Source: a virus
Taxonomy: Duplodnaviria; Caudoviricetes
Direction: 5' to 3' (one strand)
Length of the DNA stretch: 57,928 nucleotides
Virus record (IMG/VR): IMGVR_UViG_3300038312_000096
Coordinates: 1-57,928 of that record
Positions 2,508 to 43,364 of the stretch are shown here, piece after piece. A program made the translations under genes and the position numbers. Numbering within the stretch: the first letter of the stretch is position 1; the number at the start of each line of letters is the position of its first letter. The notes under the pieces were generated by a model. It saw only the letters and a list, made by a program, of their open reading frames with translations. It was not told the origin of the DNA and ran no database searches.

Positions 2508-3278
2508 TTATTGCTCCCTAGAAATTATTTCATCTGCTAGTGCTTGATAGTCTGTTGCCCCATTAGAGCTAGGCTCATAACCAATAACGGACTGGCCTGC
2601 CGAGGGCGATTCTTTCACTTTTACATTCTTTCGCACGACTGACTTAAAAACAATGTCTCCAAAAAAAGCCCTCGTCTGGTCCTCAGTCCCTTTAGTAATT
2701 TTTTCCCTAGAATCATACATAGTCAAAAATACTCCTGTTATAGCCAAATTACGATTGATGGCTCTCTTTACCTGGTCGATCGTGTTAGTAAGCTCGACTA
2801 TTCCTTCTAAGGCGTAGTAAGAGCAATCTACTGGCACATACACATCAGTCGATGCGGCGAAAGCGTTAATAGTTAATAGACCAAGTGACGGAGGACAATC
2901 AATAATAATATAGTCGTACTTTTTGCTCATCCTAGAAAGTGCATCTTTTAACTTTAATTCTCTGCTCATCATCTGAAAAAGGGTGATCTCTGCACCAGAT
3001 AATTGAATGTTGCTTGGTACTATGTCTACGCCTTCTGCTGTGGGTAAGATAGCTTTTTCTAGGGGGAAGTCATCCTCCACTAAAACATGGTACATACTTT
3101 TTTGCAGTTTGTACTTATCAATCCCAAAGCCAGTCGTTGCATTACCTTGGGGATCAGAATCGATCACCAACACCCTTTTATCTCTCTTAGCCAGCCCAAC
3201 AGCGATATTGATCGCACTAGTTGTCTTTCCGACGCCGCCTTTTTGATTGCTAATGGAAATAATTCTCACTGTAGCCAC
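2508..3278 (-). CDS. parA: ParA/Soj partition ATPase
   Basis: Deviant Walker A KGGVGKTT, DSDPQGN, IIIDCPPSLG. Confidence 0.95.
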   Translation of the reverse strand: MATVRIISISNQKGGVGKTTSAINIAVGLAKRDKRVLVIDSDPQGNATTGFGIDKYKLQKSMYHVLVEDDFPLEKAILPTAEGVDIVPSNIQLSGAEITLFQMMSRELKLKDALSRMSKKYDYIIIDCPPSLGLLTINAFAASTDVYVPVDCSYYALEGIVELTNTIDQVKRAINRNLAITGVFLTMYDSREKITKGTEDQTRAFFGDIVFKSVVRKNVKVKESPSAGQSVIGYEPSSNGATDYQALADEIISREQ

Positions 3279-3586: not shown

Positions 3587-3943
3587 TTATATATTATTTG
3601 ACGCCCTCCAAAGCCGTATCACTCTCGCCACTTCTGCTTGGCGATCTTCTGACAAGTCTTTGATCTGGTCCCAAATTGCCTTCATAGCCGGTGTGGACTT
3701 GATCATGTCTAGGAATAATCTATCTTCCCTAACAATCTCTTCTGCCTTAGGTGCGCCAATCAGATATTGCACCGTCACCCCTAGAGCATCGGCGAGTTTA
3801 TTCAAAGTCTCAACCGTCGGTGTCCTTTTTCCGTTTTCGATCTGACTTATATATGCGTAACTGAGATTAGTCTTGTCGGCTAAATCTCTTATAGTCATAT
3901 TCCTTTGTAGCCTTAGCTTTCTGACAATGTCCCCTAGCTCCAT
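3587..3943 (-). CDS. cI: Xre-family phage repressor without S24 autoprotease domain
   Basis: HTH MTIRDLADKTNLSYAYISQIENGKRTP; divergent from the lytic operon. Confidence 0.85.
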   Translation of the reverse strand: MELGDIVRKLRLQRNMTIRDLADKTNLSYAYISQIENGKRTPTVETLNKLADALGVTVQYLIGAPKAEEIVREDRLFLDMIKSTPAMKAIWDQIKDLSEDRQAEVARVIRLWRASNNI

Positions 3944-3965
3944 TTTGTTCACCCCTTGTAAAGTC

Positions 3966-4044
3966 ATTTTACACTAATAGTTATACGAACGCAAGAAAAA
4001 GTTTTATGCTTATAGTTGACATTCAGTTAGCTATGCGTTATAAT
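3966..4044. promoter_or_regulatory. Divergent switch promoters of phage A
   Basis: Plus strand: perfect TTGACA-17-TATAAT at 4016-4044; minus strand: TTGCGT-17-TAAAAT toward cI. Confidence 0.8.
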
Positions 4045-4127
4045 AAAACCAGAGCCGAAAGAAACGGCTATTTTATAACGTTTGATGTTAACTGATAGCG
4101 AACAGAGAGTAAGCAGGAGGGAAAGAA

Positions 4128-4300: not shown

Positions 4301-4573
4301 GTGATTAAGCAATTCAAAGAATCTTTAGAGAAAGAGCTGGGGTGTGAGGTTCGCATAACAATCGACATCTTCGACACTTGTTATAGAGAGGAAGCAAACG
4401 CATCTACTATAGCAGCTAAACTCAAAGATATGTTCGAAGGAATACTCAATAAGCCTAAAACAGTGTTGGAGGTAAGCGGTGATTGCAAAACAAGATGGTT
4501 AAGAGTCCAAGGCGATTACCTTCCAGATGGCGGGGCAGTTGTATTTTTACCCGAAAAGGAGGATATGCAGTGA
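4301..4573 (+). CDS. Hypothetical protein
   Basis: RBS GGAGGGG; in operon. Confidence 0.7.
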   Translation: MIKQFKESLEKELGCEVRITIDIFDTCYREEANASTIAAKLKDMFEGILNKPKTVLEVSGDCKTRWLRVQGDYLPDGGAVVFLPEKEDMQ

Positions 4574-4785
4574 GCAGAGTTTATGTGCAAACAGAGTACC
4601 TTGGCGAAGAAGTGGCTGTCGCCGAGGATAGATGGACTAACGGAGTGTCAGCAATGTTCGGGAACATAGAAATAACAGGCACAGCAGAAGACATTATTCT
4701 GTTGGCCGAAAGACTTAAAACAGGAGCGGAAGCGGTTAAGATTACAAAGCAGGAGCGCAGAGAAAGGCTAGGATTAACGCCCTGA
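4570..4785 (+). CDS. Hypothetical protein; its stop codon lies in the ribozyme core
   Basis: AGGAGG RBS; GTGA overlap with the previous gene. Confidence 0.7.
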   Translation: MSRVYVQTEYLGEEVAVAEDRWTNGVSAMFGNIEITGTAEDIILLAERLKTGAEAVKITKQERRERLGLTP

Positions 4786-4832
4786 TGAGTACCAGTTGGC
4801 AACTGGTCGAAACGCCCTTCGGGGCGTCGGCG
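4778..4832 (+). ncRNA. Type I hammerhead ribozyme
   Basis: CGCC-CTGATGA-stem II (G.ACCAG/CTGGTC)-GAAA-stem III (CGCCC ttcg GGGCG)-TC-GGCG; GUC cleavage after 4828. Confidence 0.9.
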
Positions 4833-4854
4833 AAAGCCAGAGAGGAGAGATTGC

Positions 4855-5490
4855 ATGAACGTATTTGAGAAATTGCAGACAGCAAAAGTTCGCTTGCAGG
4901 GAAAAAACTTGAAGAAAACCGGCAAAAACGCATTCAGCAAATACGATTACTTTGAACTAGGGGACTTCCAGCCAACCGTCAACAGCATCTTCTTAGAGCT
5001 GAAGCTGTTTTCTTACGTAAGCTTCACTAGAGAGCTAGCTACCTTGACTGTAATAAACATCGAAAAGCCAGATGAAGTTGTTGTTGTAACATCACCTATG
5101 GAGGACGCAGACTTAAAAGGATGCCACCCAATTCAAAATCTAGGAGCAGTAGAAACATACCAGAGAAGATATTTATACATGGCAGCACTTGACATGGTTG
5201 AGTCAGATGCAATCGACGCAGGGCAGGCCGAGCTTAGCAAAACTAAAAAAAGAGACTTTAAGCAAGAGTATGTTGATAAAGCCGCTGAAACAGGATTCGA
5301 CCTAGAGGACTTACAAATTCTCGCAGAAGAAACAGCTAAATTCCAACTCAAGAAAGAAACTAAATGGAAAGACATTCCCGACAACGTTTTTAATACTTTA
5401 ATGAAACAGCTGGAGAGCGACGAGAAGATAGCTGGTGCTAGAGCTCTTGTCACTAAGATAAAGGAGGGTCAGAAAGATGGCGTTGCTTGA
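4855..5490 (+). CDS. erf: ERF-family single-strand annealing protein
   Basis: KTGKNAFSKYDYFEL and QNLGAVETYQRRYL motifs. Confidence 0.85.
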   Translation: MNVFEKLQTAKVRLQGKNLKKTGKNAFSKYDYFELGDFQPTVNSIFLELKLFSYVSFTRELATLTVINIEKPDEVVVVTSPMEDADLKGCHPIQNLGAVETYQRRYLYMAALDMVESDAIDAGQAELSKTKKRDFKQEYVDKAAETGFDLEDLQILAEETAKFQLKKETKWKDIPDNVFNTLMKQLESDEKIAGARALVTKIKEGQKDGVA

Positions 5491-6019
5491 GCAAGAATTT
5501 AACGAGTTCCTGGATGAGCAATTTCAGCCTCAAGATGAAAGCTGGCGGGTACGTTCGGATGACGAAGCTAGTTGGTGCCTTAGAAAGATCAAACACCTTC
5601 AAGAACAGCAAGCAGAAAGAGCAGCCTTCGTGCAGAGAGAGATTGACCGTCTTCGCACATGGCAGCAGGAGCAAGACGATAAAGAGGCTTCCTCTGTAGC
5701 GTTCTTCACTGTCAAGCTTCAAGAGTATTACCTCAACCTGGGCGAGAAGTTGAATGGCAAGAAGTCATATAAGTTGCCTTTCGGTACGTTGCAAATGAGA
5801 AAGAAGCCTGCGAAGTTAGAGAGAGACGATGAGAAGTTGATGGAATTAGCCCGGCCTCTAGGACTCGTGAAGGTAAAAGAGTCGCTAGACTGGGCAGAGT
5901 TAAAAAAGCAGTTAGTGATTGATGGCTATAAGGTAGTCAACAAAGAAACTGGTGAGTTAGTCGAAGGCATAACGGTTGTAGAGGCTGAGGGTGACGAGTT
6001 CAGTATCAAAGTAGATTAG
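5477..6019 (+). CDS. Gam-like host-nuclease inhibitor
   Basis: Coiled coil followed by KSYKLPFGTLQMRK and KESLDWAELKK. Confidence 0.75.
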   Translation: MALLEQEFNEFLDEQFQPQDESWRVRSDDEASWCLRKIKHLQEQQAERAAFVQREIDRLRTWQQEQDDKEASSVAFFTVKLQEYYLNLGEKLNGKKSYKLPFGTLQMRKKPAKLERDDEKLMELARPLGLVKVKESLDWAELKKQLVIDGYKVVNKETGELVEGITVVEAEGDEFSIKVD

Positions 6020-6053
6020 GGCGGTCAATCCGCCCTCTTAGGAGGGGTAGAAG

Positions 6054-6317
6054 ATGAGTGTTTTCTTAGGTAATTTATCCATTCACCAAATACAAGAACG
6101 ACTAGGTATAGAGTTGACTGCGGAAGAAGTTAAGTTTTTTGAGTCATCATGGCAAGAGAGAGCATCTGATATAGATCCTAACAAATGGCACTGCTTCGAT
6201 ATGCCTTTTATGCTAGCCTGCGGAAGTAGAGAGTTCGCAATAAAAGTATATGGTATTCTAGGCCAATATTCAGACCAAATGACGACCCAATTACAGGTCG
6301 GAGTAGAGGGGAGTTAA
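6054..6317 (+). CDS. Hypothetical protein
   Basis: Good RBS; in operon. Confidence 0.7.
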   Translation: MSVFLGNLSIHQIQERLGIELTAEEVKFFESSWQERASDIDPNKWHCFDMPFMLACGSREFAIKVYGILGQYSDQMTTQLQVGVEGS

Positions 6318-6355
6318 CGCAGGATAAAACAGTAGATTTCCAGGGAGGGGTAGAG

Positions 6356-6559
6356 ATGGTTATTTCCAAGAACTGCCTAGCCCTTGAAGTAGCGGGGCAG
6401 GTTGTCGCAGTCACTCCTGTAAAGGGCAGCTATGTGTGGGTTACAGAAGGAAGCAGTGGCAAGGAGAGTAATATACTAGAAGCGTTAAAGATGGCAGCAA
6501 TGCAAGCAAGGAGGGAAGAAGATGCGAGTTATAGAGTTCAGAGGCAAGAGGCTAGATAA
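6356..6559 (+). CDS. Hypothetical protein, homolog of 47791..47982
   Basis: EVAGQVVAV versus TVEGQVIAV; shared GKE.N and AA.QA.RE. Confidence 0.7.
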   Translation: MVISKNCLALEVAGQVVAVTPVKGSYVWVTEGSSGKESNILEALKMAAMQARREEDASYRVQRQEAR

Positions 6560-6950
6560 GGGTGGGTGGGTTTATGGCAATTTAGTTAGTGATGGCAAAA
6601 GGTATTTTATTATCTACGATAACGACATAACAGAATGTACTCGATACGGTGAACGATATATCGAAGCAAGCAGATACTTTGAGGTTGACCCCGAAACAGT
6701 AGGGCAGTGTACAGGGTTAAAAGACAAGAATGGTACTAAGATTTACGAGGGCGATATTATTAAAATATTTGGCATAGGATACAACTATGGTTACAGCCAG
6801 CAGATCGTGAGTGTATCTTGGGATGCTGAAAAAATGTGTTTTATGTGTGGCAAAAGCAAGAGTTTATATAATTATTCTACTATTAGTTGGGCAAAGATTG
6901 AAGTTATCGGTAACATTCACGACAACCCCGAACTTTTGGAGGTGGAGTAG
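6522..6950 (+). CDS. YopX-family protein
   Basis: EFRGKR..WVYG, TVGQCTGLKDKNG.KIYEGDI, EVIGNIHDNPELL. Confidence 0.9.
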   Translation: MRVIEFRGKRLDKGGWVYGNLVSDGKRYFIIYDNDITECTRYGERYIEASRYFEVDPETVGQCTGLKDKNGTKIYEGDIIKIFGIGYNYGYSQQIVSVSWDAEKMCFMCGKSKSLYNYSTISWAKIEVIGNIHDNPELLEVE

Positions 6951-7601
6951 ATGCCTAAGCCGATTATATTTAGCACCGAGATGGTGCAAGCAATATTAGA
7001 CAAAGGCAAATCAGTCACTAGGAGAATTGTAAAGCCACAACCACTAAAGTACCAAATCGGAGATATGCTTTATGTTAAAGAAACGTGGCGAATAGATGGT
7101 TGGGATATAGATGAACTAGTAATAGCAGTTGATTACAAAGCAGGAAACTGCAACAAACGAAAATGGATTTGCGTTGAAGACGAAGATATATTTTTAAGGT
7201 ATGTCGAACAATCGGCAGAAGATGCCGAAAAAAAGGGACTCGGTATTAATGAAAATGGAAAATATCATTGGAAACCAGGGGAATCCCCTACAAGATGGAG
7301 ATCGCCAATCCATATGTCTAAAGAACTAGCACGAATCTTTTTGAAAGTTACAGGTGTAAGAATCGAAAGATTACAAGATATAACGGAAGAGGGCGCTAGA
7401 GCAGAGGGGTTTTCTGTAAAAATACGCCATATAAAAACGCACGAAGGAAACAATTTTAACGGTAGCACTACGGCAAGGGAAGAGTTCGTTGGTTATTGGA
7501 ATAGCCTGAACGAAAAATCAGGTTGGGATTGGGATGCCAACCCATGGGTGTGGGTAATCGACTTTGAGAGGATTAGCAAGGAGGAGGCGTTAAATGCCTA
7601 G
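6951..7601 (+). CDS. ASCH/PUA-like phage protein
   Basis: KPIIFSTEMVQAIL..K.VTRR, WRSPIHM, ERLQDITEE.ARAEG, NPWVWV. Confidence 0.7.
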   Translation: MPKPIIFSTEMVQAILDKGKSVTRRIVKPQPLKYQIGDMLYVKETWRIDGWDIDELVIAVDYKAGNCNKRKWICVEDEDIFLRYVEQSAEDAEKKGLGINENGKYHWKPGESPTRWRSPIHMSKELARIFLKVTGVRIERLQDITEEGARAEGFSVKIRHIKTHEGNNFNGSTTAREEFVGYWNSLNEKSGWDWDANPWVWVIDFERISKEEALNA

Positions 7602-8001
7602 AGATTTGAAGAAAGACCTCGAACTTTGTAACAAAGCTACCAAAGGTCCTTGGTACACCGGGGGAATAGACGGAGTACCCAACCGACTTATAGCAACTAC
7701 CTCTTTCTTCGGTGGTGGCAAGGTATACACCAGAGGGCAAGATGCTAGTCCCGGAGCGGATGCAGAGTTTATCGCAGCTGCAAGGGAAGGGTGGCCAGAA
7801 GCGATAGAGAGGGCTATGAGGGCAGAGAAAGCGCTAGAAATAGCTTGCGTTATTCTTGCTGATATTGCAGACAACTGTGCCTTTGACCTCTCCGTCGTGT
7901 GTCGCCAAAACAGTGACTGCGACAAAGACCCCTCGAAGTGTCACCAAGAGTATTTTTTAGAGTTAGCAAGTGAGCTAGAGAGGGAGGATTTAAATGCTTA
8001 A
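7594..8001 (+). CDS. Ead/Ea22-like protein
   Basis: KATKGPW and DAEFIAAAR motifs. Confidence 0.6.
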   Translation: MPRDLKKDLELCNKATKGPWYTGGIDGVPNRLIATTSFFGGGKVYTRGQDASPGADAEFIAAAREGWPEAIERAMRAEKALEIACVILADIADNCAFDLSVVCRQNSDCDKDPSKCHQEYFLELASELEREDLNA

Positions 8002-8245
8002 ACGCTTAGGGCTTCTCCTTCTTCTTTCGCTATTGCTACTGGCAATCTTTTCCAGCACCGCAAAAACAACCTACACCGAGACTGTAACACACGTTGTCGC
8101 ATCTAACGAAACTTTGTGGAGCATAGCGAAGAGTTACAACCCAAACAAAGACATTAGACGAGTAGTTGACGAGATACGGAAGATTAATAATTGTTCGGCG
8201 TTGATACGTATAGGGCAGGAGCTGGAAGTGCCGGTGTGGAGGTGA
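7994..8245 (+). CDS. Membrane-anchored LysM protein (YneA-like)
   Basis: Hydrophobic N-terminus; HVVASNETLWSIA..IRIGQELEVP. Confidence 0.8.
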   Translation: MLKRLGLLLLLSLLLLAIFSSTAKTTYTETVTHVVASNETLWSIAKSYNPNKDIRRVVDEIRKINNCSALIRIGQELEVPVWR

Positions 8246-8249
8246 GGGA

Positions 8250-9166
8250 GTGAAGTTTTTAGACTTCTTCGCAGGTATTGGCGGCTTCCGTCTAGGTATG
8301 GAAATGGCAGGTCATGAGTGCGTAGGTCACTGCGAGATAGATAAGTTTGCTCAAGCTAGTTATACCGCTATGCACAACCCAAAAGAAAGTGAGTGGTTTG
8401 CCGATGACGTCACAACAGTTGACCCTTCTGAATTGCCCGAAGCAGACTGCTGCTGTGGAGGATTTCCGTGTCAGAGCTTTAGCGTTGCTGGAAAGCGGGG
8501 GGGTTCGAGGACACACGAGGCACTTTATTTTTTGAAATCATGCGGTTGGCAAAAGTACGAAACCCTAAATATATTTTCCTTGAGAACGTCAAAGGACTTC
8601 TTTCCCACGATGGAGGACAAACTTTCGGAACAATCCTCTCAACTTTGGGGGAATGTGGGGATGATGTCGAATGGCAGGTGCTTAACAGCAAAGATTTTGG
8701 AGTTCCCCAAAATAGAAAAAGAGTGTTCATTATCGGACATCTTAGAGGGAGAAGTAGACCAAAAGTATTTCCTATCACAGAAACAAGCAATGCAACTCTT
8801 AAGCAACTTGTTGGAGGAAGCCAAGGATACAGAGTGTATGACCCGAGCGGAGTAAGTTGCACCCTAGCAAGTGAAGCTGGTGATATGGGAGCTAAAACAG
8901 GTCTATATTTCGTTAACCAGCCTCGATACGGTAAATATCAAGGAAGCAAAACAAGCCAGACAATTAGAGTTGGTGGAGATATACCATTAGTTCTGGAATC
9001 ATCTTTTGTAAGACGCCTTACCCCCAAAGAGTGCTTCCGCTTGCAAGGCTTTCCCGACGAATATTTCGAGCGAGCTAAAGCGGTTAATAGCGATAGCCAA
9101 CTCTACAAGCAAGCAGGCAATTCCGTTACTGTAAACGTGATATATGAGATTGCTAAGAGATTGTGA
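8250..9166 (+). CDS. DNA (cytosine-5) methyltransferase, frameshifted at a G7 tract (8497-8503)
   Basis: FAGIGG and GFPCQ in one frame; ENVKGL, PQNRKRVFI, RLQGF and QAGNSV in another; one extra G restores KRGGFEDTRGTLF. Confidence 0.88.
8610..8855 (+). CDS. Alternative-frame peptide nested in the methyltransferase (possible beta subunit)
   Basis: Open overlapping frame with ECSLSDILE..VDQKYFLS; start codon uncertain. Confidence 0.5.
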   Translation: MEDKLSEQSSQLWGNVGMMSNGRCLTAKILEFPKIEKECSLSDILEGEVDQKYFLSQKQAMQLLSNLLEEAKDTECMTRAE

Positions 9167-9175
9167 GGTGAAAGC

Positions 9176-9973
9176 ATGGCAATTATACGAGTAGAGAAGC
9201 AACGGAACTTTGTCGCAATAGACAAAACTTGCCTAGAGGACGATCGACTTAGTTTCAAGGCAAAAGGTTTACACTCTTACTTGATGAGCCGCCCCGACAA
9301 TTGGAAACCTATCTTGGAACAATTATCGACAGTTAGCAAGGACAAGCAAGCATCAGTAAGGGCTGGGATGAAGGAGCTCGAAGACTGTGGCTATATTATC
9401 AGAAGACCAGTAAAAGATAATGGCAAAATAGTCGAATGGGAACACATTGTATATGAAAAACCACAAAAGCCCAGCTTGAGTCCACAAGTTGGTTTTCCAC
9501 AAGTGGAAATCCCACAAGTGGAAATCCCACAAGTGGAAAATCGAAGACTAATAAGTAATGAAGTAATAAATAATGATCTAATAAGTAATGAAGTAATAAA
9601 CCTCCTATCTGCTGCCGCAGACGACCCCCCACCAAAATATGATACAGACTCAGAACCCTATAAGCTAGCACATTACCTCAGAGAGCAAATCCTCTTACGT
9701 GACCCACAAACCAAAGTGCCTGCTAATACTTTAGAAGCTTTGCAATCTTGGTCGAAAGACGCCGATCGAATGATTAGACTAGACCACAGAGACTTTGCAG
9801 AGGCTAAAGAGCTTATTAAATGGTGTCAGCAAGATTCCTTCTGGAGTTCCAACATTTTAAGCATGGCGACCTTCAGAAAACAGTATGACAAACTCAAGAG
9901 GCAGAGTGGAGGGAAGAAGAAGTATGACCCAACAGCAGTCGATTGGGAAGCAGAAGCAGCAAAATACCTGTAA
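9176..9973 (+). CDS. Phage replication initiator
   Basis: LSFKAKGL..YLMSRPDNW N-terminus; internal iterons; precedes the DnaC-like loader. Confidence 0.85.
   Translation: MAIIRVEKQRNFVAIDKTCLEDDRLSFKAKGLHSYLMSRPDNWKPILEQLSTVSKDKQASVRAGMKELEDCGYIIRRPVKDNGKIVEWEHIVYEKPQKPSLSPQVGFPQVEIPQVEIPQVENRRLISNEVINNDLISNEVINLLSAAADDPPPKYDTDSEPYKLAHYLREQILLRDPQTKVPANTLEALQSWSKDADRMIRLDHRDFAEAKELIKWCQQDSFWSSNILSMATFRKQYDKLKRQSGGKKKYDPTAVDWEAEAAKYL
9482..9600 (+). repeat. Lytic origin: four 15-bp iterons plus two AT-rich repeats
   Basis: CCACAAGT(G/T)G core four times at 15-bp period; CTAATAAGTAATGAAGTAATAAA twice. Confidence 0.85.
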
Positions 9974-10715
9974 TAAAGCCGGGACATGCCTAAACGGCAG
10001 ATACACGGATGAATGTAAAGACTACAACATGCTACCAGCTAAAGAGTATACGGAATATATGGAAGCAATAAAGAACGGTACTGCACTAGACGGATATAAA
10101 ACATGCCCAAGATGGGAGCTACCTGCTTACTCACTGAATAGTTGCCCCAAGAAAAGCAATAACTGGCAGTATAAGCTAAGGCAAGCAGATATACCTGCTA
10201 GATACGAGTTCGCTAATAGAGGAGTAACGCAAGATTCTAAAAGCTGGCTAGCGTTGAATCAGTACATGGACACTCTCGAAGAAAATATGGACAGCGGACA
10301 AGGGTTGTTGATGTTTGGTAGTTTCGGCACAGGAAAAACCACAGCGGCGGTTGTTGTGGCACAAGAAGCTATAAGTAAAGGCTACTCTGTTAAATTTCTC
10401 GGTGTCGACTACCTAACGGCCGAACTAAGAGGTATGCAGTACGAGCAGGCGGCGATCTTTAGAAACGAGCTAGCAGAGAAAGACTTAATCATCTTAGACG
10501 GCCTAGAGGCAGACGCAGATGGGAAGTGGCTATTAGAAGAAGTTGGAGCAATTATCGCACGTCGATATGACAACAGAAAATCGATAATTGTCACCACTAA
10601 CAGCACTCCAGAGCAGCTAAAAAGCAGCTCCCTACCGCAAAGATACATTGTGAGAATCCTGCACGCCTGTAAAGTCATTCCAATAGTTGGGAAGAATTGG
10701 AGGGAAGGGGTATGA
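9924..10715 (+). CDS. DnaC/IstB-like helicase loader ATPase
   Basis: Walker A GSFGTGKT; DLIILD; IVTTN; RBS GGAGGG before ATG 9924. Confidence 0.88.
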   Translation: MTQQQSIGKQKQQNTCNKAGTCLNGRYTDECKDYNMLPAKEYTEYMEAIKNGTALDGYKTCPRWELPAYSLNSCPKKSNNWQYKLRQADIPARYEFANRGVTQDSKSWLALNQYMDTLEENMDSGQGLLMFGSFGTGKTTAAVVVAQEAISKGYSVKFLGVDYLTAELRGMQYEQAAIFRNELAEKDLIILDGLEADADGKWLLEEVGAIIARRYDNRKSIIVTTNSTPEQLKSSSLPQRYIVRILHACKVIPIVGKNWREGV

Positions 10716-11419
10716 AGTACGATCTTGACGATGAAACGGTAATCCTTAAAGCCCAGACCAATCCTTCTTTTATTGAAGAACTACTCCCCACACTAGAAGC
10801 AATCATAATGTCGGCAACTAAGCAGGTTGTCCCTACCGCACACTATAACGATGAAGATATAATGCAAGATGGTATGGTGGCGGCTATTGAAGCAATATAT
10901 AAATATAAGCCAGGTAGGACTGATTGCATTGCCAAATACATTTGGGTAAGCGTAGCCAACAGAGTGTGGTACGAAGCGGGCAGTGCTAACGCTGTATTGA
11001 AAATCGGCAAAGGTAATCAGCATAAATATTATAGAGCAAAAAAAGAAATAAGAAAAAATCCAAACATAACAAAAAAAGAACTAATGCAACTAGACATAGC
11101 AGAATCAATAGCAGTAAGCGCTCTTATGGAAATGGATAAACTTGTGTCAATGGATAAAGAATATACAGAAAATGGGGAAAATATGTATGGGTTAGTCAGA
11201 AATAATACTAATATAGAGAGCAGAGCATTGACCAATGTGGCATTTTGCAAATGGGCAAAATCATTAACAGAAACTGAAAAATATTATATAAACGGAAGCT
11301 TGCGCGGAATGACATATAAAGAGATGGCAGAAGAAAGAGGGGTTACTCCTTCGGCACCAGAGATGTGTAGGTTAAGGGCAAAGGCAAGGCTTAAAAAAGA
11401 GTTAGGAGTGATAGCGTGA
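10712..11419 (+). CDS. Sigma-70-family sigma factor
   Basis: EDIMQDGMVAAIEAIYKY region 2; C-terminal HTH MTYKEMAEERGVT. Confidence 0.75.
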   Translation: MKYDLDDETVILKAQTNPSFIEELLPTLEAIIMSATKQVVPTAHYNDEDIMQDGMVAAIEAIYKYKPGRTDCIAKYIWVSVANRVWYEAGSANAVLKIGKGNQHKYYRAKKEIRKNPNITKKELMQLDIAESIAVSALMEMDKLVSMDKEYTENGENMYGLVRNNTNIESRALTNVAFCKWAKSLTETEKYYINGSLRGMTYKEMAEERGVTPSAPEMCRLRAKARLKKELGVIA

Positions 11420-11784
11420 ACAAGGTTATTTTAATCGGAAGACTGACACGTGACCCCGAACTAAAACACACACCTAACGGAACAGCCACAACCAATTTCA
11501 CTCTAGCAGTAGACAGACCATTCAAAAACCAACAAGGCGAGAGGGAAACAGACTTTATCGACTGTGTCGCATGGAGGAAACTGGCCGAAACTATAGCAAA
11601 CAACCTCAAGAAAGGCAAGCTTATCGCAACAGAAGGTAGATTGCAAAAGAGAAGCTACGAAGCAAAAGAGGGCGGGAAAAGGTGGGTTACAGAAGTAATC
11701 GTTGATAACGTGCAATTCTTAGAGAAAAAGGATGCGGAAGAACAAGGGCAACCAGAGGGTAGTTTAGAAGAAGTTCCTTTTTAA
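11416..11784 (+). CDS. ssb: Single-stranded DNA-binding protein
   Basis: NKVILIGRLTRDPEL; acidic C-terminus EEVPF. Confidence 0.95.
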   Translation: MNKVILIGRLTRDPELKHTPNGTATTNFTLAVDRPFKNQQGERETDFIDCVAWRKLAETIANNLKKGKLIATEGRLQKRSYEAKEGGKRWVTEVIVDNVQFLEKKDAEEQGQPEGSLEEVPF

Positions 11785-11857
11785 TAGCGGGGGAGGGCAA
11801 ACACCTCCCCAATATATTATATGCACGTAAAAAATATTTATGCAAGGAGGCAAAAGA

Positions 11858-12046
11858 ATGATAGCGTTAGCTTTAGTCACTTTTGTGTTGGTAATAGGCT
11901 CCTACCTACTTGGATATAGTCACGGCGACTCTTCTGGCGAATGGCGAGGATGGTGCTGGGGATATGACAAGGGGCAGAACGATGCTAAAAATGGCGTTAT
12001 ATTCGATTATGAGAAGAACGAGTTAAGACGCAAGGAGGACAAGTAG
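11858..12046 (+). CDS. Small membrane protein
   Basis: AGGAGG RBS; hydrophobic N-terminus. Confidence 0.6.
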   Translation: MIALALVTFVLVIGSYLLGYSHGDSSGEWRGWCWGYDKGQNDAKNGVIFDYEKNELRRKEDK

Positions 12047-12406
12047 ATGCCCTACGGAATCGTTGCTAACCACACAGTCGCTTACGTCGCAGGTCCTTAC
12101 AGGAATTCGCCAGAAGGCAAGGAGCGAGCAAAGCGACTAGCTAAAGTGCTTTGGCGACAAGGGTACGCAGTAATCTGCCCTCACACCAACTCGCTAGACT
12201 TCGAAATAGACATACCCAACGACAAGCTATTCCTAGACGGATACTTAGAGTTACTGACGAGATGTGATGTTATGTATGTTATCGAGGGGTGGAGGGACAG
12301 TGAGGGAACGATGGCAGAGATAGAGCTGGCAGAGAAGTTAGGTATACCCGTAGAGTATGTGAGGGAAACAAGAAATGGAGTCTTCGCTAGTGCGAATCTA
12401 TGCTGA
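12047..12406 (+). CDS. DUF4406/nucleoside deoxyribosyltransferase-like protein
   Basis: YVAGPY, PHTN, CD.MY..GW.DSEG..E...A. Confidence 0.75.
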   Translation: MPYGIVANHTVAYVAGPYRNSPEGKERAKRLAKVLWRQGYAVICPHTNSLDFEIDIPNDKLFLDGYLELLTRCDVMYVIEGWRDSEGTMAEIELAEKLGIPVEYVRETRNGVFASANLC

Positions 12407-12420
12407 AAGGAGAGCAACAA

Positions 12421-12654
12421 ATGAAAATGGATAACCTGCATGTAGCATGTGGACCTATAAATGGAGCGATATACATTGCTAAAGCAAACCCTAAAATGTC
12501 AAAAGGCAACTTGATTGTAGCTGATGACATGATCGACAGGACAGACCAAGTCATCGAGGCAGTAATGATGCACATGGACAAGCAAATAAAAGAAGGCGAT
12601 AACGCACTGGAGATAATTCACCCTAACGGCAAGCTTATATGGGAAAGGAAATGA
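12421..12654 (+). CDS. Hypothetical protein
   Basis: AAGGAG RBS; in operon. Confidence 0.6.
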   Translation: MKMDNLHVACGPINGAIYIAKANPKMSKGNLIVADDMIDRTDQVIEAVMMHMDKQIKEGDNALEIIHPNGKLIWERK

Positions 12655-13064
12655 TTGTATCTTTCACAGTCCCCGGCAAGCCCCATGGGAAGGGTAGAGC
12701 AAGATTCGCAAATGGACACGCTTACACCGATAAAAAGACGAGAGAATATGAAGAATTCGTTGGTTATTGCTACTTAGCAGCTGGCAACAAAATACTAAGC
12801 GGCGACATTAAACTATCCATTAGAGCTTACTACCACATACCTAAGACCATCAATAAAGAAAAAGTTGACGAAAAGACAAAGCAAAAGATGTTAAAAGGAG
12901 AAATAAAGCCCGGCAAACCAGACCTCTCTAACGTAGTTAAAGCGATAGAAGATGGCTTAAACCAAGTGGCCTACGAAGACGATAGTTGCATAACGGACTA
13001 CGGAGAGTCTTTCAAGCGGTACAGCGACAAGCCAAGAGTGGAGGTAACCTTGGAGGTGATCTAG
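12651..13064 (+). CDS. rusA: RusA-like Holliday junction resolvase
   Basis: PGKPHGKGRARF; KPDLSNVVKAIEDGLN..AYEDD. Confidence 0.88.
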   Translation: MIVSFTVPGKPHGKGRARFANGHAYTDKKTREYEEFVGYCYLAAGNKILSGDIKLSIRAYYHIPKTINKEKVDEKTKQKMLKGEIKPGKPDLSNVVKAIEDGLNQVAYEDDSCITDYGESFKRYSDKPRVEVTLEVI

Positions 13065-13354
13065 TGCAGGAACTAGCAGAGCAGTATAGACAATCATGCA
13101 AAGTTATCCGCAAATGCTTACGGAGAGCGAACGAATACGACCGCCCACACCTCTTATCTGCCCTTATCGAGTGTAACACCCTAGCCTCCCTCGCAGACAA
13201 TTATTATGACAGGTCCTATCGACCACCTAGAGCGTACTCAATGTCCCAATGTCACAACCGTTCACCAAAATTCACCTTCTCCTATGCAGTAGAATCCAGA
13301 ATAATCGATGCAGTACACAAGGGGGTGAGCGCTCTTGATGAGCTAGGGCTATGA
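13064..13354 (+). CDS. Hypothetical protein coupled to the sigma region-4 gene
   Basis: GGAGGTG RBS; GTG start. Confidence 0.65.
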   Translation: MQELAEQYRQSCKVIRKCLRRANEYDRPHLLSALIECNTLASLADNYYDRSYRPPRAYSMSQCHNRSPKFTFSYAVESRIIDAVHKGVSALDELGL

Positions 13355-13650
13355 GAGAGAAACCTTTTTCGCCAGAGATGATGGCGACGCTGGGATTAGT
13401 AGCTGGCTTGGACGGTCGAGAGTTGGAAGGAAATTCCAATTCCGATTATGTAAACACACTTAGAGAAGCGCTCCCAAAGGCGATGGAAGAACTGACTGAG
13501 AGGCAGAGGGAAGTTGTCATCTTGTACTACTGGGAGCAAATGACGCAGGAAGAAATTGCAGTTAGACTAAAATTAACACAGCCCACAGTAAACGAACACT
13601 TAAACAGAGCGATAAATAATTTACGAGAAAACATCGAAAAACACCTATAA
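13351..13650 (+). CDS. Sigma-70 region-4 HTH protein (probable late regulator)
   Basis: LTERQREVVILYY..MTQEEIA..L..TQPTV. Confidence 0.8.
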   Translation: MREKPFSPEMMATLGLVAGLDGRELEGNSNSDYVNTLREALPKAMEELTERQREVVILYYWEQMTQEEIAVRLKLTQPTVNEHLNRAINNLRENIEKHL

Positions 13651-13795: not shown

Positions 13796-13869
13796 GCCTC
13801 TTTAGTTTAACGGTAGAATAACTGCCTTGTAAGCAGTGGGTGTGGGTTCAATTCCTACAAGAGGCTCCA
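13796..13869 (+). tRNA. tRNA-Thr(TGT) with encoded CCA
   Basis: Acceptor GCCTCTT/AAGAGGC; anticodon arm ACTGC-CTTGTAA-GCAGT; T loop TTCAATT. Confidence 0.92.
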
Positions 13870-40653: not shown

Positions 40654-40928
40654 TTTGTTAGCCTCCCTTTCGCTCTTTCTGATTTCATTATAGCATGACG
40701 TGCGTATGCAGTCAAGCACAAATGCACAGATATTTAAAAATAATTTATATCGAATAAAAAAGCCCCGCGGTTAGGCGGAGCATGTCCTAAAATTTGGCTA
40801 TTTACGTGAGGGAAACAAATGTTTTCTGTAATCTCAGAAGCCATCAGGTATAATTACATAGCTTGTACTTTGAAAATGCTTTAGAAAGCAAATGTGAAGG
40901 TATTGCCTGCTAGAAGTTGGTGCGGTTA

Positions 40929-41716: not shown

Positions 41717-42742
41717 TTATATCTTTTCTATAGCTTGCCTTAACTCTTCTAAGTCTGTGTGTGTATAGATATTTGCTGTAGTAGAGTAATCTGCATGTCC
41801 AATTATTTCTTGGATTGCTTTAGTATTAGCTCCGGCTTTACTAAGGAGACTTGCAAATGTGTGCCTAGTGGAGTGAGGTACCAAATTTCTTACCCCTGCT
41901 TTTTCAAGAGTAGGGTAATAGAGTTGAGTTCGGTAGTAATCCACCAGTATTCTTTGACCGTTTCGATTAATAATATAGCTGCCATCCGTGTTATACCACT
42001 GTCTAATATAATTTTGTATTTTAGGGTGAATAGGTATAGTTCTGTTCTTACCAGCTTCTGTTTTGCTTCCACCTGTGATAGTCATCGCTTTAAGGTCTAT
42101 GTTAAATTTTGTGAGCTTCAGAAGCTCGCCAATTCGCATTCCAGTATATATTAGTATCAGTATGCTATTAGCCCACTGATCATCCTCAGCTAATTTCTCT
42201 ATAGCTTTTATTTCGATCTCAGTGAAGCATTCGCGTCCTTTTGCAGTTTCTTCTGGTAATTTAACTAACTCTGCGTAGTTCTTGCTAACTATATCATCAG
42301 CCATCGCATATTGGTACAGCAACCCAGCAAGCACCTTGACTTTGTGACAAGACGACTTACTTAATCCCGCTTTACTCATGCTAGTTATAACATCTTGCAA
42401 ATGTGATGTCTTAATATCTTGAAATTGCATATCTGACAGTTTGGAGAGATGCTTCCAAGCGGCATTATAGGTTTCCCTAGTGCTTTTGCTTATGGTTTCG
42501 TATTTTAGGTTAACCCATTCCTCAAAGAGCGCACTAAGGGTTATCCCTGAGCGCTCTCCGATGGGGTTCTTGTTATATTCAGTAAGCGCTGATATAGCCT
42601 CCGCTCTTGTTTTGTAGCTTCCTACGTAATACTTTAGTTGCTTGCCATCTTCTGCCCAGCCCGTAGTCACGCGAGCAACCCACGAGTTGCGGCGATTACC
42701 CTTTACTTTGTATACGCTACCAAATCCATTTGGCAACTTCAC
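41717..42742 (-). CDS. int: Tyrosine integrase
   Basis: KLPNGFGSV; TGMRIGE; K; HSTRH; GH; Y catalytic residues. Confidence 0.95.
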   Translation of the reverse strand: MKLPNGFGSVYKVKGNRRNSWVARVTTGWAEDGKQLKYYVGSYKTRAEAISALTEYNKNPIGERSGITLSALFEEWVNLKYETISKSTRETYNAAWKHLSKLSDMQFQDIKTSHLQDVITSMSKAGLSKSSCHKVKVLAGLLYQYAMADDIVSKNYAELVKLPEETAKGRECFTEIEIKAIEKLAEDDQWANSILILIYTGMRIGELLKLTKFNIDLKAMTITGGSKTEAGKNRTIPIHPKIQNYIRQWYNTDGSYIINRNGQRILVDYYRTQLYYPTLEKAGVRNLVPHSTRHTFASLLSKAGANTKAIQEIIGHADYSTTANIYTHTDLEELRQAIEKI

Positions 42743-42755
42743 GAGGATCAACCCC

Positions 42756-43364
42756 CTACAACATACTTTGAAAGAATATAGCTTTGCCCAAAATCTTTAT
42801 TTCAGCAAAATCTTCTGCTGTGTAATACCGCGGTTGGTAGTTAGAATTTTCGGGCTTAAGGATAATGCCGCCATTGTTCTTATAAAACCTTTTAAGAGTA
42901 GCTTCGTTATCTAGTAGTACCACAGCTATTTCTCCATCGTCCACAGCTGACTGTTTTCTAACAAACACTACATCGCCATTGTTTATTCTGGCATCGACCA
43001 TACTGTCACCCTTTACCTGCAAGCAGAAATCAACATCTAGGCATTCATCCACCTCTACATATGTTCGGCAATCCTCGTACGCATAAATTGGTTCTCCTGC
43101 GGCTATAGTTCCGAGCAGGGGGACCTTTTTTGTTTTAAGTGAAAGGATGCTTTCAGGCTCGTCCATCCCCATGATCCACAGTGGTGATACCCGCAACGCC
43201 TTTGCTAAAAGGGCCACGTTATCCCTTCTCATGTTTTCGATAAAACCTGTTTCCCATTTCATAACTGTGCTTTTACTAACACCAACTAAATTTCCTACAT
43301 CTTCTAAGGTTAATCCTAACTCTAATCTTCTTTTTTTTAATTTGCCTCCCATTTCCATGCACAA
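42756..43364 (-). CDS. cI: CI/LexA-like repressor (HTH plus S24 peptidase)
   Basis: IAAG cleavage site; VKGDSM; ATLKR. Confidence 0.92.
   Translation of the reverse strand: MCMEMGGKLKKRRLELGLTLEDVGNLVGVSKSTVMKWETGFIENMRRDNVALLAKALRVSPLWIMGMDEPESILSLKTKKVPLLGTIAAGEPIYAYEDCRTYVEVDECLDVDFCLQVKGDSMVDARINNGDVVFVRKQSAVDDGEIAVVLLDNEATLKRFYKNNGGIILKPENSNYQPRYYTAEDFAEIKILGKAIFFQSML

Follow-up and report, generated by a model that had tools for sequence, protein, structure and literature searches.

The question raised by this locus is whether the short stretch of DNA between a small early ORF and the recombination gene erf of a phage encodes a self-cleaving RNA, and what a cut at this position would mean for the genes on either side. 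The window, by which we mean the whole stretch of DNA that was analysed, is a complete viral record of 57,928 bases, and positions 4778-4839 hold its only hammerhead. On the basis of this sequence and its relatives, 4778-4839 on the + strand is very probably a functional type I hammerhead self-cleaving ribozyme, stabilized by a pseudoknot of 4 bp in which loop II pairs with the tail, carried in early RNA and with a predicted cut after C4828.

Anatomy of the predicted ribozyme

A preliminary description of this DNA had placed a complete type I hammerhead at 4778-4832. All defining parts of the class could be read in the + strand, and the core and stem coordinates were confirmed. The catalytic core segment C3-A9 is the CUGAUGA at 4782-4788, G12 A13 A14 are supplied by 4809-4811 as part of the GAAA at 4809-4812, and position 17 is occupied by C4828, an H17 residue and not a G. 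The core is flanked by the expected pairs G10.1-C11.1 (G4789-C4808), A15.1-U16.1 (A4812-U4827) and G4829-C4781. The topology is type I, with an open stem I and with loops closing stems II and III. Stem I is formed by CGCC (4778-4781) and GGCG (4829-4832). Stem II and its loop occupy 4789-4808, where the G10.1-C11.1 pair is followed by a bulged U4790, a 5-bp helix (ACCAG/CUGGU) and the 7-nt loop UUGGCAA (4796-4802). Stem III (4812-4827) consists of A15.1-U16.1 and a CGCCC/GGGCG helix with a UUCG loop (4813-4826). The weak points of the element are stem I, which has 4 bp only, and the bulged U in stem II beside G10.1-C11.1.

Hammerhead cleavage is Mg-dependent, falls 3′ of position 17 and generates 2′,3′-cyclic phosphate and 5′-OH ends. 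By the hammerhead consensus, cleavage is predicted here 3′ of C17 (4828), which would leave the cyclic phosphate on C4828 and the 5′-OH on G4829. The start and the parts of the element had been given correctly in the preliminary description, but its end had been set too short. The UGGC in loop II (4797-4800) is paired with the GCCA (4836-4839) in the tail 3′ of stem I through U4797-A4839, G4798-C4838, G4799-C4837 and C4800-G4836, as indicated by the family covariation described below, and this pseudoknot partner extends the element to 4839.

The expectation by chance was estimated with a descriptor whose required parts are CUGANGA and GAA, a stem II (4 bp or more) and a stem III that are both closed, the A...U pair of stem III, H at position 17 and a stem I of 4 bp or more. 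Applied to the 57,928-nt window the descriptor gave one match on the + strand and none on the − strand. When the whole window was shuffled with preservation of dinucleotides and both strands were scanned, one of 300 shuffles contained any descriptor match and none of the 300 contained one with stems as long. Folding energy was no better than that of shuffled sequences, the z-scores for the 55- and 96-nt RNAs being −1.36 and −1.04. The MFE structure of both RNAs is a competing fold in which 4778-4782 is paired with 4822-4826; for the 55-mer, the centroid structure is the hammerhead, 0.2 kcal/mol above the MFE. Because the hammerhead fold is not the MFE structure and the z-scores are not significant, stability was left out of the evidence.

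An Rfam hammerhead search had been proposed earlier as a check of the element, and the site was matched by none of the models. No hammerhead model gave a match at the site at gathering score when the whole window was searched, a search of 4600-5000 (401 nt) with all 4227 families at E up to 10 returned no hammerhead match, and RF00163 alone and RF00008 alone also gave no match at the site. By the gathering threshold the element falls outside RF00163, RF00008, RF02275, RF02276, RF02277 and RF03152. It nevertheless shares with the type I hammerhead RF00163 (clan CL00010) the CUGANGA/GAA/H17 core, the G10.1-C11.1 and A15.1-U16.1 pairs, loop-closed stems II and III and the open stem I. The differences lie in stem II, which is longer than in the 45-position model and bulged, and in the tertiary contact, which is the loop II-to-tail pseudoknot. 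RAGATH-1 (RF03152) is a pseudoknot hammerhead variant in which the pseudoknot supplies the tertiary contact. The pseudoknot is common to RAGATH-1 and the window element, whereas the latter has a full-length stem II and gave no RF03152 match at E up to 10.

Covariation in a family of viral hammerheads

Relatives were collected from viral contigs by two pattern searches, of which the core combined with GUCGGCG returned 49 stretches and the core combined with UGGC in loop II returned 110. Among the 146 loci from both searches (L008-L153), 73 contained hammerheads according to the descriptor, with 125 distinct hammerheads in all. A covariance model, R1, was built from a seed of 18 hammerheads of one length class from other viral contigs, leaving out the window, L002 and L009. 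With filters off and both strands searched, R1 matched the window at 4774-4844 with 64.0 bits (E 2.9e-19), a score in which 18 modelled positions match by selection since the seeds were fetched with patterns taken from the window element (core, UGGC and CGAAAC); the stems, A15.1-U16.1, H17 and the tail lie outside this pattern selection. The second-best R1 match in the 57,928-base window reached 10.5 bits. The matches with this score, at 1093-1158 and 40790-40855, are two copies of a repeat without the GAA core and were rejected as ribozymes. R1 finds a single hammerhead in the window, the second phage-like half included, which agrees with the earlier remark that no equivalent had been spotted before YqaJ/RecT in the second phage.

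Searching the window and the 73 descriptor-positive loci with R1 yielded 153 matches at E up to 1e-3, and 150 of these were aligned (alignment A2). Multiple copies are common in this family: 37 of the 73 contig segments carry at least two hammerheads and the maximum is 11. The densest arrays were seen on the − strand of L103 (11 hammerheads, about 5800-13470) and L153 (nine, about 5080-9610), where within 5-8 kb one hammerhead lies ahead of almost every small gene. At the end of the viral contig L054 a near-identical pair (56-117 and 333-394), 277 nt apart, brackets a short segment. The same pattern applied to bacterial genomes gave mostly chance matches, and R1 confirmed hammerheads in 8 of the 80 loci listed. 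The confirmed bacterial loci include a Moorellaceae bacterium, a Christensenella MAG with four copies, a Clostridia MAG, a Burkholderiales MAG and Gellertiella with two copies.

The stems are strongly supported by the aligned sequences. Among the 150 members, 96.3% of the cells are paired compared with 68.5% in shuffles, and the stems contain 713 compensatory cells compared with 186 in shuffles, counts that lean towards the model as A2 was fitted to the R1 stems; the pseudoknot was not part of this fitting. Pairing amounts to 96.1% in stem I, 98.6% in stem II and 99.0% in stem III, and falls to 32-44% if the stem partners are slid by 1-3 columns. Changes on both sides occur in 16 of the 17 stem pairs, the exception being G10.1-C11.1, which is nearly invariant, and A15.1-U16.1 is changed in one row only. 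All five column pairs of stem I covary and all six of stem III covary or are kept. Apart from H17 (C 127, A 20, U 3, G 0), the core varies only at N7 (U 117, C 26, A 6, G 1), and G12 A13 A14 are conserved in 149-150 of the 150 members. The restriction of core variation to N7 and to an H17 that is never G matches the known rule for hammerheads.

The Rfam hammerhead models also remained silent, at gathering score, on 96,046 bases from 10 loci in which this family is represented by dozens of clear members. Members in L103 scored below the thresholds, with 27.0 and 25.9 bits for RF00163 (cut-off 34) and 28.9 and 28.4 bits for RF03152 (cut-off 56.3). Because clear relatives are likewise missed, the silence of Rfam at the window site reflects the models and not the sequence. 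A large set of type I phage hammerheads with a loop II-to-tail pseudoknot is unreported by the current Rfam models and will be missed by annotation pipelines.

Two loci with closely related ERF proteins keep the ribozyme, namely L002 from the viral contigs (ERF 99% identical; R1 61.4 bits) and L274 from a metagenome search with ERF (96% identical; R1 67.6 bits). Compared with the window ribozyme, a pseudoknot C-G pair is replaced by U-G and loop III is longer by one G in L002, and position 17 is A instead of C in L274. The bases flanking UGGC in loop II vary among the three copies, and a fifth stem I pair (U-A) is present in both L002 and L274. All differences among the three copies are predicted to be tolerated by the fold.

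These data bear on the possibility that the element is a decayed and inactive hammerhead relic, or a structured RNA that does not cut and serves as a 3′ end protector or a protein-binding site. The lack of Rfam matches at the site would fit this explanation, as would the short stem I, the stem II bulge beside the core and the competing fold that forms the MFE structure. We nevertheless consider it quite improbable. All invariant core bases are intact, a one-base bulge after G10.1 as in the window recurs in 15 of the 150 members, and the changes in L002 and L274, among them C to A at position 17, are confined to places that the fold tolerates and leave the structure in place. Rfam also misses the other members at gathering score in the 10 hammerhead-rich loci. 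The competing helix 4778-4782/4822-4826, which was considered as a conserved switch and rejected as such, is paired in 64.6% of the cells in the family and in 63.2% in shuffles. An active hammerhead thus remains the preferred reading.

The pseudoknot was examined in the same alignment. Most family members have UGGC in loop II and GCCA in the tail after stem I. In the corresponding family columns, 31-34 × 123-126, 88.2% of the cells are paired, and slid controls for these columns gave 6-48%. The number of compensatory cells was 29 as compared to 7.1 ± 2.3 in shuffles, and none of 500 shuffles reached 29. Loop II and tail were found to change together, with UAGC accompanied by GCUA, UGGU by ACCA and UGAC by GUCA in different members. 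Since R1 cannot represent pseudoknots, this test is independent of the model fitting. A sub-group of loci comprising L020, L043, L051 (three hammerheads each), L021, L041, L049 and L053 has a UGAAAAU-like loop II and another tail, without the UGGC/GCCA pseudoknot.

In the preliminary description the GCC of the tail had been assigned to a GNRA hairpin, GGC-GAAA-GCC, which after cleavage would form the new 5′ end and which before cleavage could compete with stem I; in such a reading the hairpin would protect the erf mRNA. Its three pairs can be drawn in the window, L002 and L274. Conservation of this hairpin could not be found in the 150 members, where the columns are paired in 49.8% of the cells versus 50.9% in shuffles with no excess covariation, and the same GCC (4836-4838) covaries with loop II instead. 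A 3-bp hairpin would also be marginal in stability. Both the hairpin and its role as a competitor of ribozyme folding were abandoned as highly improbable. Engaged in the loop II-tail pseudoknot, which we favor, the GCC should help ribozyme folding rather than hinder it.

Gene context and placement of the cut site

The ribozyme-carrying transcript likely starts at a predicted sigma-70-like promoter on the + strand (TTGACA-17-TATAAT, 4016-4044) that matches the consensus at 12 of 12 positions. This promoter-like site sits between a divergent HTH repressor gene (3587-3967, − strand) and the first ORF of the + strand, and no terminator-like site was found between it and erf. Both observations agree with the location in an early rightward operon that had been proposed before. 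In the likely early transcript the ribozyme would be preceded by ~740 nt that include three small ORFs without family assignment. Directly after the promoter, at 4053-4069, there is a hairpin with a T-rich run that may be an early attenuator or an operator-like element.

The ORF upstream of the ribozyme (4570-4785, + strand) encodes 71 aa without a Pfam or PHROG match and runs from GTG 4570, which overlaps the previous stop and is the most plausible start, to TGA 4783-4785. Stem I takes its 5′ strand from the last two sense codons of this ORF, whose stop is the UGA of CUGAUGA, so that the stop of the upstream gene indeed lies inside the catalytic core, as was noted earlier. The translation ends in TP followed by two stops, with a second UGA in frame after the core UGA. 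On the downstream side the Shine-Dalgarno region of erf, GAGAGGAGAG (4840-4849, + strand), follows immediately 3′ of the pseudoknot, and the erf gene (4855-5490, + strand) encodes an ERF-family single-strand annealing protein of 211 aa (PF04404, 29.7 bits with a cut-off of 25; phrog_155, E 1.9e-25). The end of erf is overlapped by a Mu Gam-like end-protection gene (5477-6019, + strand; PF07352, E 1.8e-24; phrog_2205, E 6.5e-43). The Pfam and PHROG matches uphold the position that had been assigned to the element, directly upstream of an ERF-family gene that is followed by a Gam-like gene. The erf Shine-Dalgarno region is 11 nt and the ATG at 4855 is 26 nt past the predicted new 5′ end. The Gam protein has relatives in 41 phage records, and where these name a host it is a Firmicute, from which we infer a probable Firmicute host. 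A search of genome contigs with the ERF protein gave no relative.

Homologous erf loci had been suggested as a place to look for conservation of the element. The outcome was divided: the ribozyme is kept at ERF identities of at least 96%, in L002 and L274, but in 10 loci with ERF proteins 48-67% identical R1 found it in none (E up to 1). Among the ERF loci examined it is confined to the three with at least 96% ERF identity. A general link between hammerheads and erf was rejected on these grounds and by the finding that ERF accounts for 1 of 105 ORFs downstream of family members. The window and L002 are identical at 141 of 410 columns upstream of stem I, at 117 of 124 columns from stem I onward, and at 1161 of 1165 columns over erf-gam. 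Their upstream ORFs are distant homologues, and both end in P-UGA-UGA within the core. In this lineage the ribozyme appears to travel with the erf module, and judging from the loci compared its association with erf genes is not an ancient one. Precisely where stem I begins (window 4778, L002 2923), the identity between the two loci rises abruptly from 34% to 94%, a pattern suggestive of recombination at the hammerhead. A more general role of hammerheads as markers of mosaic junctions was considered in an all-against-all comparison of flanks; with 2 clear cases among 32 related pairs, the number is too small for such a claim.

The placement of the element relative to its neighboring genes was compared across the family. 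In 109 of the 150 members the cut site is followed within 120 nt by a start codon that has an SD-like motif, at a median distance of 33 nt (quartiles 29 and 43), as compared to 26 nt in the window. An SD-like motif is present within 60 nt in 111 of the 150 members, with a median of 20 nt past the cut. Upstream of the cut, 39 of 146 members (23 of 73 contigs) use the core UGA as the stop of the longest ORF, and in the family the upstream stop occurs at no other single position as often. In 87 of the 146 the stop starts at most 15 nt before the core, in 16 it lies further upstream and in 4 deeper inside the ribozyme. The window follows this layout, with the stop in the core, the ATG 26 nt after the predicted cut and a ribosome binding site in between. 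The genes downstream of the family members are diverse and mostly unassigned, with 23 Pfam families among 105 ORFs; the ArdC N-terminal domain occurs twice and ERF only in the window.

The overlap between stop codon and core raises the possibility of a translation-gated switch. A ribosome on the last codons of the upstream ORF would unwind stem I and cover the core and part of stem II; cutting would be restricted to those transcripts, or those periods, in which the upstream ORF is not translated, and erf/gam expression would be tied to how heavily the upstream gene is translated. Such gating would fit the identity of the stop with the core UGA in the window, in L002 and in the 39 members mentioned, as well as its being the modal stop position, and in the further 87 members with a stop just before the core a terminating ribosome would reach stem I. 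If true, these phage hammerheads would be translation-sensing processing switches and not constitutive cutters. However, the tight packing of phage genes predicts the same layout without a switch, UGA-UGA may simply be an available stop in a conserved core, and the ORF ends before the core in about 70% of the members. The stop-in-core arrangement is also unmentioned in the accessible portion of the study on prophage hammerheads discussed below (PMC3088659), and a search of papers for this layout of phage hammerheads found nothing relevant. Taken together, we consider translation gating unlikely and prefer a ribozyme that cuts without it. Independent of gating, the stereotyped placement, in which the upstream stop falls within the core or shortly before it and ~30 nt separate the cut from the next start codon, constrains models of the purpose of the cut. 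As descriptive points, the stop-in-core arrangement as the modal layout, the stereotyped start distance and the blindness of Rfam to this subfamily are modestly new.

Predicted cleavage and known phage hammerheads

For the preferred reading, a self-cleaving ribozyme in the early transcript, the following course can be proposed. The early rightward polycistronic RNA that starts at the 4016-4044 promoter would carry the ribozyme, which would fold during transcription and cut after C4828. The upstream piece would comprise the three small ORFs with the stop intact and would end in a compact stem II/III structure with a 2′,3′-cyclic phosphate at the 3′ end. The downstream erf-gam piece would begin with a 5′-OH at G4829, 11 nt ahead of the Shine-Dalgarno region and 26 nt ahead of the ATG of erf. 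The recombination and replication genes could then have their own expression and RNA turnover, separate from those of the upstream regulatory ORFs, and such uncoupling of expression and decay is the likely consequence of the cut. Cleavage in vivo and an effect on mRNA stability or translation are what we infer from this arrangement. A search for sequencing runs that contain this stretch listed no RNA run.

In Firmicutes, work on the glmS ribozyme indicates that a 5′-OH end may attract RNase J1 and not protect the RNA. Because this may also apply in a Firmicute host of the present phage, the effect on the erf mRNA may go in either direction. A ribosome bound near the new 5′ end could protect the erf mRNA.

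Hammerheads between phage genes are an established phenomenon, as the preliminary description had stated. Their occurrence between the genes of phage and prophage operons, with a stem I/II pseudoknot in all three topologies, is described in the available part of Perreault et al. 2011 (PLoS Comput Biol, PMC3088659). According to the same part of that paper, self-cleavage was observed in vitro for clustered hammerheads from prophages and, for one triple arrangement, also in vivo in E. coli; mutation and rescue showed that cleavage at low Mg is fast only with the stem I/II pseudoknot. For these prophage hammerheads it was proposed that long phage transcripts are processed into single-gene mRNAs (PMC3088659). 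The inference in the preliminary description, by which the cut would make the recombination mRNA independent of the upstream genes in its stability or translation, corresponds to this hypothesis. A literature search on the function of phage hammerheads found nothing beyond the part of this paper that was accessible. The window element shares with the Perreault hammerheads, as far as that part describes them, the phage setting, the position between genes of a polycistronic unit, the stem I/II pseudoknot and the proposed cutting of transcripts. The prophage hammerheads described there form clusters, whereas the complete 58-kb record of the window phage contains one copy only; the related L103 and L153 carry arrays. 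The exact loop II UGGC/tail GCCA form may already be present in the figures or supplements of the paper (PMC3088659, Figures S1-S5).

Another relevant case in the accessible text of PMC3088659 is HHphage of the haloviruses HF1 and HF2, for which a 5′ end was mapped close to the site of cleavage. As presented there, HHphage is a core variant from an archaeal virus located 13 nt from the start codon, whereas the window element has a core that follows the consensus, is separated from the start codon by 26 nt and belongs to a probable Firmicute phage. The element is a well-supported addition to a known but functionally unexplained class, the hammerheads inside phage operons, and leaves the current understanding of ribozymes unchanged. 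In this temperate-type phage a single copy separates three small early ORFs from the genes for recombination and replication, a simple setting in which to test whether the cut alters expression.

The window as a whole is made up of two related phage-like units in tandem, which share direct repeats that are 82-95% identical and about 39-49 kb apart. The repeat pairs are 1-106/40308-40413, 966-1186/40663-40883, 9920-10132/48983-49195, 10257-10556/49332-49631 and 6513-6762/55547-55796. The first unit encodes a ParA-like ATPase (2508-3278, − strand) besides the HTH repressor, and an integrase was not found in the part scanned. The second unit, from near 40.3 kb, encodes a tyrosine integrase (41717-42751, − strand) and an S24/LexA-type repressor (42756-43364, − strand). 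The tandem units could be two adjacent prophages or a chimeric assembly. At gathering score, Rfam matches nothing in the window except a tRNA gene at 13796-13866 on the + strand (RF00005, 67.6 bits).
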